This document shows, one piece after another, positions 55,867 through 56,129 of a stretch of 64,000 nucleotides of DNA. Where the stretch lies: assembly GCF_988242995.1 (NCBI RefSeq), contig NZ_OZ547043.1. One strand, written 5' to 3'. The notes under the pieces were generated by a model. It worked only from the letters and a program-made list of their open reading frames with translations. It was not told the origin of the DNA and searched no databases. Both the position numbers and the translations under genes were made by a program. Positions within the stretch are counted from its first letter, which is position 1. Each line of letters opens with the position of its first letter.

Positions 55867-55882
55867 AATATTTAAAAAATTA

Positions 55883-55919
55883 TTGGTTCCTAATTGGTTC
55901 CTAATTGGTACCAATTAGG
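55883..55919. promoter_or_regulatory. tandem TTGGTTCCTAA repeats plus 20-bp perfect palindrome CCTAATTGGTACCAATTAGG
   Basis: two direct 11-bp repeats (55883-55893, 55894-55904) run into a perfect palindrome (55900-55919) inside the AT-rich int-alpA intergenic region; candidate operator. Confidence 0.45.
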
Positions 55920-56129
55920 AGCCAATTTGTGTCTCTTTACTGTCTCATTTTGAGAAATATTTAAAATTCTTTTTATGTTAGAAAATTAAAAAATAATCAA
56001 TCACACAACTCTTATTAAATAATTCTTGACTTGCTTTTTTATAGATTTGTATTCTTTTTATATGCTTTCATATGGTTACCGTCACTTTCATTCAAAAAGT
56101 GATATTTTGCTGTCTTTAGGAGAAATAAG

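Follow-up and report, generated by a model that had tools for sequence, protein, structure and literature searches.

The tandem repeat and perfect palindrome between int and alpA of a small Escherichia coli phage-satellite island are read here as a slippage-prone hairpin at the 3' end of int, a weak terminator or insulator that would separate constitutive int from inducible alpA; we give this reading a probability of about 40%. The palindrome more likely marks the end of the int transcript than the operator for island induction that an initial annotation of this DNA had seen in it. Taken in its entirety, the spacer very probably serves to control the island's master activator. Such alpA control regions are already known in kind, and the member of this family described here is new.

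A phage satellite at proL

The window, by which we mean the whole 64-kb stretch of DNA that was analysed, is E. coli chromosome, with yejK, yejL and yejM followed by tRNA-Pro(GGG) at 54339-54415. An island of ~9 kb lies after this tRNA gene (proL) and has its far end before yejO. Comparison with K-12, in which the same site is unoccupied, places the att cores ~9 kb apart, at 54401 (CTCTCGTGCCGACCAAA, the 3' end of the tRNA) and 63348. Candidate Int arm repeats (TTTAGTTATAYG) were noted near both cores, at 54536, 54548, 54580 (inverted), 63263 and 63275. The island DNA is 100% identical in E. coli LH13-b, for which RefSeq gives the gene order integrase, HTH regulator, ash pseudogene, Icd-like protein, DUF4222, DUF927 (primase/helicase), SSB, ProQ/FinO, PerC and two hypothetical proteins, and these assignments are backed by Pfam.

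The first gene, int (54622-55866, + strand, with its stop codon at 55864-55866), is an open reading frame for a P4-type tyrosine integrase, recognised by the Pfam domains Phage_integrase, Arm-DNA-bind_3 and Phage_int_M and by the integrase annotation of the identical LH13-b locus. It is followed on the same strand by alpA (56130-56321), which encodes a 63-aa AlpA-family HTH protein (Pfam PF05930, Phage_AlpA, 28 bits against a cut-off of 21) whose homologues are annotated as AlpA family or HTH regulator. Among solved structures the AlpA-family entry 8c3t is a weak match (E = 0.058), and the better-scoring ETV6 fusion chains are spurious; our literature search found no paper on structure 8c3t.

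Downstream of alpA lies a C4/CI-type RNA, the loop of which is complementary to boxes on both its sides (56766 and 56948). This RNA is the recognisable immunity device of the island, which lacks a repressor gene. Genes for capsid or packaging functions were not recognised there, nor were any homologues of delta, sid or psu by annotation and Pfam. Iteron arrays were observed at 59806-59943 and 62197-62226. The island has int and alpA co-oriented at one end, a downstream DUF927 primase, a small size and a site-specific att duplication, which are the features of a PICI, and the int, alpA, pri-rep layout is that of Gram-negative PICIs (PMC6092414, PMC10111431). CI/seqA homologues have also been reported in PICIs (PMC10111431, the HE-PICI paper). 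Judged by its gene content, with int, alpA, the C4/CI-type immunity RNA and the DUF927 primase, the island is a PICI/P4-like phage satellite.

Anatomy of the int-alpA spacer

The repeat and palindrome are real and non-random. An 11-nt unit, ATTGGTTCCTA, is repeated 2.5 times on the + strand at 55882-55909 (Tandem Repeats Finder: period 11, 100% matches, score 56; repeat family D2), so that the two tandem copies reported in the initial annotation are present, as TTGGTTCCTAA twice at 55883-55904. The perfect 20-bp palindrome reported with them can be read directly at 55900-55919 (CCTAATTGGTACCAATTAGG). It belongs to an extended quasi-palindrome at 55892-55927 (inverted repeat I2, also found by RNA folding), with 18-nt arms at 55892-55909 and 55910-55927 and a single T:G mismatch, which becomes a G-U pair in + strand RNA. 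Repeat and palindrome together consist of 11-bp units arranged head-to-head. The quasi-palindrome ranks first among the inverted repeats of the whole window, and its RNA folds at -32 kcal/mol as against -14.6 +/- 2.9 for shuffles (z = -6.0; equalled by 0/200). By simple arithmetic, random sequence of 64 kb should contain ~0.06 perfect 20-bp palindromes, and arms of 18 nt with a single mismatch should be far rarer still.

On the int coding strand, the hairpin begins 26 nt past the int stop codon and leaves 98 nt to the -35 hexamer of the candidate alpA promoter. An A-rich tract, AATAAAATAAAATATTTAAAAAATT (55857-55881, + strand), runs across the stop codon and is almost unchanged among homologues (alignment A1); on the - strand it would give a T-run after the hairpin. 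The A+T content is 74.9% over 55867-56129 and 75.7% over 55928-56129, so that the ~200 bp of ~75% AT DNA described earlier as following the palindrome is found as 202 bp of ~76% A+T. Its first part, at 55928-56005 on the + strand, is hypervariable, carries TGTCTC(W)TT units (alignment A1; repeat families D1 and D4) and contains, at 55936-55959, a degenerate copy of the alpA translation-initiation region. Other islands have 1-3 copies of a 21-22-bp unit (CCATTATTTAAAGTYAGAAG) in place of this stretch.

Ahead of alpA, where the initial annotation had noted -35/-10-like hexamers, a consensus scan located two such pairs. The first, our candidate alpA promoter, consists of a -35 TTGACT (56026-56031), an 18-bp spacer and a -10 TATTCT (56050-56055) on the + strand; the second, TTGAGA-18-TATGTT, lies at 55950-55979. 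Two such pairs are no excess over the shuffle mean of 1.8. The TTGACT-18-TATTCT pair is, however, invariant in 10/10 aligned homologues, as are TCTTGACT and TTTGTAT of the candidate promoter, which recur in the E. albertii and metagenome homologues as well. Just before the ribosome-binding site, a small leader hairpin, TCACTTT-N7-AAAGTGA followed by TATTTTGCTGTCTTT (56082-56102, + strand, read directly from the sequence), forms a block that is at least 90% conserved in alignment A1 and is lost in strain XJ6.1 by a ~31-bp deletion. The Shine-Dalgarno sequence AGGAG (56118-56122, + strand), 7 nt before the alpA ATG, is likewise conserved in A1. Three blocks of the region are conserved: the left arm together with the A-tract, the core promoter at ~56005-56060, and the leader at 56075-56115.

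Distribution and variation among islands

The int-alpA spacer occurs in 67/5426 complete E. coli genomes, once per genome and always between int and alpA at proL, and also in E. albertii and three metagenome contigs (the three true homologues among nine hits of the metagenome scan). Because it occupies one place per genome, always the same, it is not a dispersed repeat; a REP/BIME-like palindromic repeat, a mobile element end and a plasmid or phage element were rejected on this ground and for want of any match in phage or plasmid collections. A search for the motif elsewhere in the genome, which the initial annotation had proposed as a check, gave the same picture: the 12-mer ATTGGYTCCTAA has no other copy within the 64-kb window at up to one mismatch, and the motif has a single location in each of the 67 E. 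coli genomes. AlpA relatives in IMG/VR and GTDB genomes stand in other contexts without the motif, the spacer being shared with E. albertii only, and the hairpin was found in 0/73 Int relatives in IMG/VR.

A second island family uses the same proL site in ~100 E. coli genomes, with an Int that is 83-88% identical to that of the window (related IMG/VR contigs). Its gene order is int, a promoter-like GTGAAA-17-TATAAT, a small ORF, a canonical terminator and, ~75-115 bp before alpA, a repeat/palindrome containing GGTACC. The motif of the window was found neither in this nearest sister family nor in EcCICFT073.

Fifteen homologues were compared; alignment A1 comprises ten islands. A 34-nt quasi-palindromic core, ATTRGYTCCTAATTG-N4-CARYYWRGAGYYWAT (55893-55926 in the window, inside the quasi-palindrome), is homologous and gap-free in 15/15 and exists in nine versions, which fall by their centre into three hairpin types: A (GGTACC), B (GGTRTC) and C (GACACC). 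Most changes fall in the right arm, the left one varying hardly at all. Extra copies of the 11-nt arm number 1-2 on the left (2 in the window) and 1-4 on the right (4 in E. albertii), and the copy number differs between islands that are otherwise nearly identical, such as 042 and XJ6.1. All 15 homologues fold as an 11-17-bp hairpin at the same place, with -19 to -33 kcal/mol for the 110-nt segment. As to conservation of the motif in related islands, the lack of which the initial annotation had named as part of what would refute its proposal, the core is kept in nine versions with varying arm copies, and only the left arm is conserved.

Pairwise identity is 96% over the last 300 nt of int, 63% from the stop codon to the -35 hexamer, 80% from there to the ATG and 96% in alpA. 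Depending on the island, the int stop and the -35 lie 148, 157-159, 179, 190-191, 212 or 223 nt apart, in steps of ~11 or 21-22 bp. The variable modules are the TGTCTCWTT units (2 in the window, ~6 in KY178) and, in type II spacers, the 21-22-bp unit in 1-3 copies. AlpA differs by 0-4 substitutions across 14 islands. One and the same AlpA sequence accompanies hairpin type A in the window, type B in KY178 and type C in CM2, and the I26 and V26 alleles are found with every hairpin type. Int differs from the window's by 0-3 amino acids in islands of type A, 9-14 in type B and 17-22 in type C. The hairpin type thus follows the Int clade and not the alpA allele, which means that recombination has separated the hairpin from alpA but not from int.

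The palindrome as a possible operator

In characterised relatives, the alpA promoter region is the point at which helper phage and AlpA act as a switch, which makes the int-alpA spacer a fitting location for a control region. This part of the earlier proposal is supported, by those relatives and by the conserved sigma-70-like promoter; the assignment of the operator to the repeat and palindrome is not supported. The palindrome ends 98 bp upstream of the -35, and transcription probably starts ~150 bp from its centre. Three sequence versions of it, with differing arm copy numbers, occur in islands whose AlpA is the same or nearly so (0-4 substitutions); a site recognised by an unchanging AlpA would be expected within an unchanging stretch of DNA. 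The motif has no second copy in the island and is missing from the nearest sister family at the att site and from EcCICFT073, and its version goes with the int clade rather than the alpA allele. Judged from these comparisons, the operator reading of the repeat and palindrome is weakened.

A proposed hairpin at the 3' end of the int transcript

We propose instead that the element at 55882-55927 belongs to int. Its position close behind int, the stable fold, the linkage of hairpin type to the Int clade and the single location in each genome favour this view. In an int transcript of the presumed direction and extent it would form a long A+U-rich hairpin that may end the int transcript, stabilise it or do both, as a weak, non-canonical intrinsic terminator. 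It would thereby keep constitutive int transcription out of alpA, whose product alone triggers excision and runaway replication in related islands, and the extra arm copies would come from replication slippage of the 11-bp unit. The control of alpA proper would reside in the conserved block at ~56005-56129, comprising a sigma-70-type promoter, a ~65-nt leader and the ribosome-binding site, and by analogy with characterised Gram-negative PICIs this block is where helper-phage induction and AlpA auto-activation may act.

The case for a barrier comes from those relatives. PICMI115 has a constitutive int and a phage-induced alpA, which by itself sets off excision (PMC10803314); in EcCICFT073, over-expression of AlpA leads to uncontrolled replication and loss of viability, and Pint is not under AlpA control (PMC6092414); in EcCIMP1, an alpA reporter spanning -449 to +50 is induced by the helper and depends partly on AlpA (PMC11773190). 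Helper induction and auto-activation of alpA and mobilisation by a helper are known only for these three islands (PMC6092414, PMC11773190, PMC10803314). A constitutive int, a phage-induced alpA and an alpA that alone sets off excision and replication together imply that int and alpA in the same orientation need a transcriptional barrier. The conservation of promoter and leader, set against a hypervariable stretch from hairpin to promoter, also favours insulation. The sister family follows the same design principle, with a terminator between int and alpA, but has its repeat as a separate element; it supports the need for insulation and not the window palindrome in that role.

As an intrinsic terminator the hairpin is at best weak and non-canonical. 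A simple terminator scan finds it terminator-like, with 16 pairs and the tail TGTGTCTCTT, but only 5 of the 16 pairs are G-C and the U-tract is interrupted (tail TTTGTGTCTCTTT, nT 3.3). In our own d'Aubenton-Carafa-type score, which adds hairpin energy per nucleotide to a weighted T-tail, the window reaches +4.2 on the + strand and the other 14 homologues range from -33 to 0, the - strand being no better; for comparison, three canonical-looking terminators score far higher, with +29 at proL, ~+20 (d = 19.8) in the second family and +20 on the yejO side. The additional copies of the right arm, of which E. albertii has as many as 4, would be useless to a terminator and count against this reading, as does the lack of a hairpin right after int in the second family, with its 83-88% identical Int, and in EcCICFT073.

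Covariation likewise counts against the terminator reading. In the alignment 91.9% of cells are paired and one compensatory pair occurs (G-C to A-U, columns 4 and 31), a score matched by 91/500 shuffles. Since this is not above chance, the structure can be said to be conserved by descent, with no demonstrated selection for pairing. Intrastrand template switching in quasi-palindromes could also create matching changes on both arms, and a constant left arm beside a decaying right arm is the pattern expected from plain descent.

Alternative explanations

It is possible, though in our view somewhat unlikely, that the units form a protein-binding array, in which each 11-bp unit would be a site for a small winged-helix protein (AlpA, another island or helper-phage protein, or a nucleoid protein) and the whole would serve the alpA promoter as a regulatory or architectural element lying upstream. 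The element shows a period of 11 bp, that is, one DNA turn, and 2.5 direct copies followed by inverted ones, in numbers and orientations that vary among islands. Excisionase-like wHTH proteins (lambda Xis, BldC, RdfS and P2 Cox) bind head-to-tail direct repeats one turn apart (PMC11963761), and PalpA is auto-activated by AlpA in relatives (PMC6092414, PMC11773190). In EcCICFT073, ~six GAACAAC-type repeats at ~10-bp spacing directly follow int, with related GACACAAC repeats adjoining alpA; islands of the second family also have a repeat/palindrome upstream of alpA. The steps of ~11 or 21-22 bp in the distance from int to the -35 would roughly keep the helical phase of the array to the promoter, but units of these lengths would trivially produce this, and within the window AA/TT periodicity falls short of significance (p = 0.08). 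Also against the array is that, under the same AlpA, the units read ATTGG, ATTAG or ATTGA and differ in copy number and orientation. It lies at least 98 bp from the -35 hexamer and has no second copy at the att sites or other island promoters, and a literature search found no binding data for AlpA of this type.

A second alternative, which we regard as unlikely, grants the element no selected function. On this view a hypermutable quasi-palindrome would persist as a relic in an A+T-rich spacer under relaxed constraint, simply inherited and altered over time by replication slippage and by intrastrand template switching, which would also yield the apparent compensation. The covariation that does not exceed shuffles fits this, as do the unpaired changes that build up in the right arm while the left stays constant, the variation in arm copies between near-identical islands (042 and XJ6.1), the fall in identity to 63% between stop codon and promoter against 96% in the flanks, the other duplications in the spacer, including the degenerate copy of the alpA initiation region, and the absence of the element from sister families. 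It accounts less readily for a strong hairpin that is kept in 15/15 homologues despite heavy turnover 3' of it, or for a perfect 20-bp palindrome in the window far beyond chance. Long perfect palindromes are, moreover, generally unstable in E. coli unless tolerated or selected.

More speculatively, the whole hypervariable stretch, that is, the 11-bp array together with the 10-11-bp and 21-22-bp modules in whole helical turns, might offer a protein of a helper phage or of the host a binding platform that varies in copy number. It would then be the helper-sensing part of the switch, and the choice of inducing helper and the strength of induction would depend on the type and number of modules. 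We consider this improbable; if true, such a platform would be the cis-acting counterpart of the diversifying Stl repressors of Gram-positive PICIs.

Still less probable is RNase III-type retroregulation like that of lambda sib/tI, in which processing at the stem in the int 3' UTR would make the stability of int mRNA depend on the transcript that carries it. An almost perfect stem of 16-18 bp immediately 3' of int and its poor performance as a canonical terminator suit this idea, for which lambda sib is the precedent of int control from a downstream hairpin. In most homologues, however, the stem is shorter (11-15 bp, with mismatches), and integration does not part the element from int as it does in the case of sib.

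An operator for a host GntR-family regulator, PdhR or LldR, is hardly credible. The palindrome centre AATTGGT/ACCAATT gives both half-sites of the PdhR box, which is AATTGGTnnnACCAATT (PMC7660256), and the window carries AATTGGTACCAATT at 55903-55916. The 3-nt spacer is missing (0 nt), the GGTnnnACC core being needed for tight binding (PMC7660256), and the half-sites are lost in hairpin types B (ATTGGTRTCAGTT) and C (ATTGACACCAAY); with matching half-sites, wrong spacing and no conservation, this candidate was rejected.

Several other candidates were also rejected. An Int arm-type site is excluded in that the candidate arm repeats TTTAGTTATAYG are unrelated to ATTGGTTCCTA and the palindrome lies ~1.5 kb from the att core. 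A target of the C4/CI RNA is not at hand, the C4 loop being complementary only to 56766 and 56948 and not to the spacer. AlpA as a Q-like antiterminator acting on these hairpins was dismissed on size: the protein here is only a 63-aa HTH, and P. aeruginosa AlpA is much larger. That antiterminator contacts DNA through residues 128-142 and has an N-terminal ring (PMC9371919). No known RNA family matched in 55867-56129 (Rfam, E <= 1), and no convincing lambda or P2 cos was seen in the island. A replication origin was discarded with the iteron arrays lying elsewhere in the window (59806-59943 and 62197-62226), and intrinsic curvature with the AA/TT 10-11-bp periodicity at p = 0.08 in the window; where that periodicity is significant, the tandem repeats themselves drive it.

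Significance

The locus provides a compact set of natural variants with which the induction of Gram-negative PICIs by helper phages can be tested. It comprises 15 sequenced variants with 9 hairpin versions, near-identical in int, alpA and core promoter and differing only in the hairpin and repeat modules, which makes promoter dissection and module swaps straightforward. Should the palindrome be an int 3' hairpin and nothing more, it would be an ordinary annotation detail, yet one that would show how a constitutive int can be placed head-to-tail with an inducible master activator. Should the variable modules tune the response to the helper, they would bear on satellite-helper specificity.

Comparison with known systems

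One close likeness is to PalpA of EcCICFT073 and EcCIMP1. These are likewise small islands, tRNA-linked or site-specific, whose left end has int and then alpA in the same orientation and which carry a primase, an icd-like gene and PerC. The two genes are separated by a long A+T-rich spacer carrying repeats, which in those islands is activated by helper phage and AlpA (PMC6092414, PMC11773190). Their spacers have no sequence similarity to that of the window, and EcCICFT073 has direct GAACAAC/GACACAAC repeats and no terminator-like hairpin. The window island also differs from both in having no recognised capsid or packaging genes and in carrying a P4-type C4/CI RNA.

With intrinsic terminators the element shares a stem-loop 26 nt past a stop codon, a T-rich stretch after it (TTTGTGTCTCTTT) and an upstream A-tract of the kind seen in bidirectional terminators. 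It departs from them in its very long A+U-rich stem, interrupted U-tract, marginal score and variable arm copies. The downstream genes recall the P4 left operon (PLL upstream of vis, with CI RNA immunity), in that a gene of AlpA/Vis type heads the operon and the C4/CI RNA is followed by ash-like and icd-like genes. In P4, however, int is not known to lie directly upstream of vis, as it does of alpA here, and the candidate promoter in the window has a good -35 and shows no TGT-N12-ACA activator site (P2 Ogr / P4 Delta type) in its sequence.

The arrays bound by wHTH excisionases (lambda Xis, BldC, RdfS and P2 Cox; PMC11963761) share with the element a spacing of one turn between repeats, a neighbouring integrase gene and a small wHTH protein encoded by the same genetic element. 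Those arrays are head-to-tail and lie in attP or promoters, whereas the units in the window are head-to-head, 1.5 kb from the att core and at least 98 bp from the promoter, and vary under the same AlpA. In lambda, tI/sib is a hairpin just beyond int, and the element of the window could likewise be both terminator and processing site; unlike sib, it adjoins int in the integrated and the excised state alike.

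The int-alpA spacer and the alpA leader

The centre of the perfect palindrome in the int-alpA spacer (AATTGGTACCAATT, 55903-55916) matches the PdhR/LldR box of E. coli in its two 7-nt half-sites but has no 3-nt spacer between them, a resemblance that is probably coincidental. Further along, the distal spacer holds at 55936-55959 a degenerate copy (TTTACTGTCTCATTTTGAGAAATA) of the alpA translation-initiation region at 56106-56127 (TTTGCTGTCTTTAGGAGAAATA), which suggests an old duplication. Amplification has brought the TGTCTCWTT-type spacer units to some six copies in strain KY178. 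The alpA leader itself carries a small hairpin followed by a T-run (56082-56102), directly 5' of the ribosome-binding site. This element, which could be an attenuator or a protein site, is kept in most islands and was lost in strain XJ6.1 through a deletion of about 31 bp.

The sequence context of the alpA promoter -35 element, ATTCTTGAC(T/A) at 56022-56031, has two more copies in the late region (61384-61393 and 61700-61709), one of them lying within a stretch of 33% G+C and being followed by TATTTATAAC. The island may thus have additional promoters of the alpA type at these late copies.

Related and decayed islands

A second satellite family occupies the same proL attachment site (islands L018 and L020; also L036-L092), with integrases 83-88% identical to that of the window. 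Their gene order is int, a small ORF, a canonical terminator, a direct-repeat/palindrome element (ACAGTGGGTACCGTTTTAAAACGGTGGGTACTGTTTTT) and alpA (2787-2900 in L018; also L020), the alpA gene having about 76% DNA identity to that of the window; AACCAGT/AACCATG repeats follow directly after int and overlap a TATAAT. Several islands of these families are decayed (GPEC1405, PK8217 and locus L019): int either contains an internal stop or is truncated where IS5 or IS21 has inserted, and in PK8217 an IS1 stands in place of alpA. The hairpin and spacer persist beside the remnant in these decayed islands.

In EcCICFT073, the characterised PICI of E. coli CFT073, about six GAACAAC-type direct repeats spaced at about 10 bp lie directly 3' of int (7160-7250 of that locus, L034), and the predicted promoter of alpA is overlapped by repeats of a related sequence, GACACAAC (7440-7500). 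Both are candidate AlpA sites, of which we found no earlier description in the literature searched.

Island ends and iteron-like arrays

The island is bounded by att cores at the tRNA-Pro 3' end (54401-54417) and at an imperfect copy of that end before yejO (63348-63362); the same site is unoccupied in K-12. About 62-148 bp inward from each end lies a doubled 12-bp motif, TTTAGTTATAYG (54536-54559 and 63263-63286), with an inverted copy at the int side (54580-54591). These motifs, unrelated to the int-alpA palindrome, are candidate arm-type sites for Int or excision sites for AlpA. Candidate replication-origin repeats are found in three iteron-like tandem arrays: CACCTGTCC x2.8 (59806-59831) and a 21-bp unit x2.4 (59893-59943), both after the DUF927 primase gene, and TGGGACAGG x3.3 in the late region (62197-62226). 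The two 9-bp units share a CCTGTCC/GGACAGG core, on opposite strands.

A C4-type RNA with a probable immunity role downstream of alpA

Within the annotated "ash pseudogene" of the island, Rfam models identify on the + strand a C4 antisense RNA (56826-56913; 76 bits against a gathering score of 45) and, 5' of it, an isrK-like RNA (56725-56801; 47 bits, slightly below the gathering score of 50). The C4 loop TCCTTTTGCG (56869) is complementary to two boxes, GCAAAAGG at 56766-56773 and CGCAAAAGGA at 56948-56957. The C4 RNA and its boxes are probably the real immunity switch of the island, acting on the operon downstream of alpA. Their arrangement, with the C4 RNA between two boxes, is the seqA/CI/seqC layout of P4 RNA immunity.
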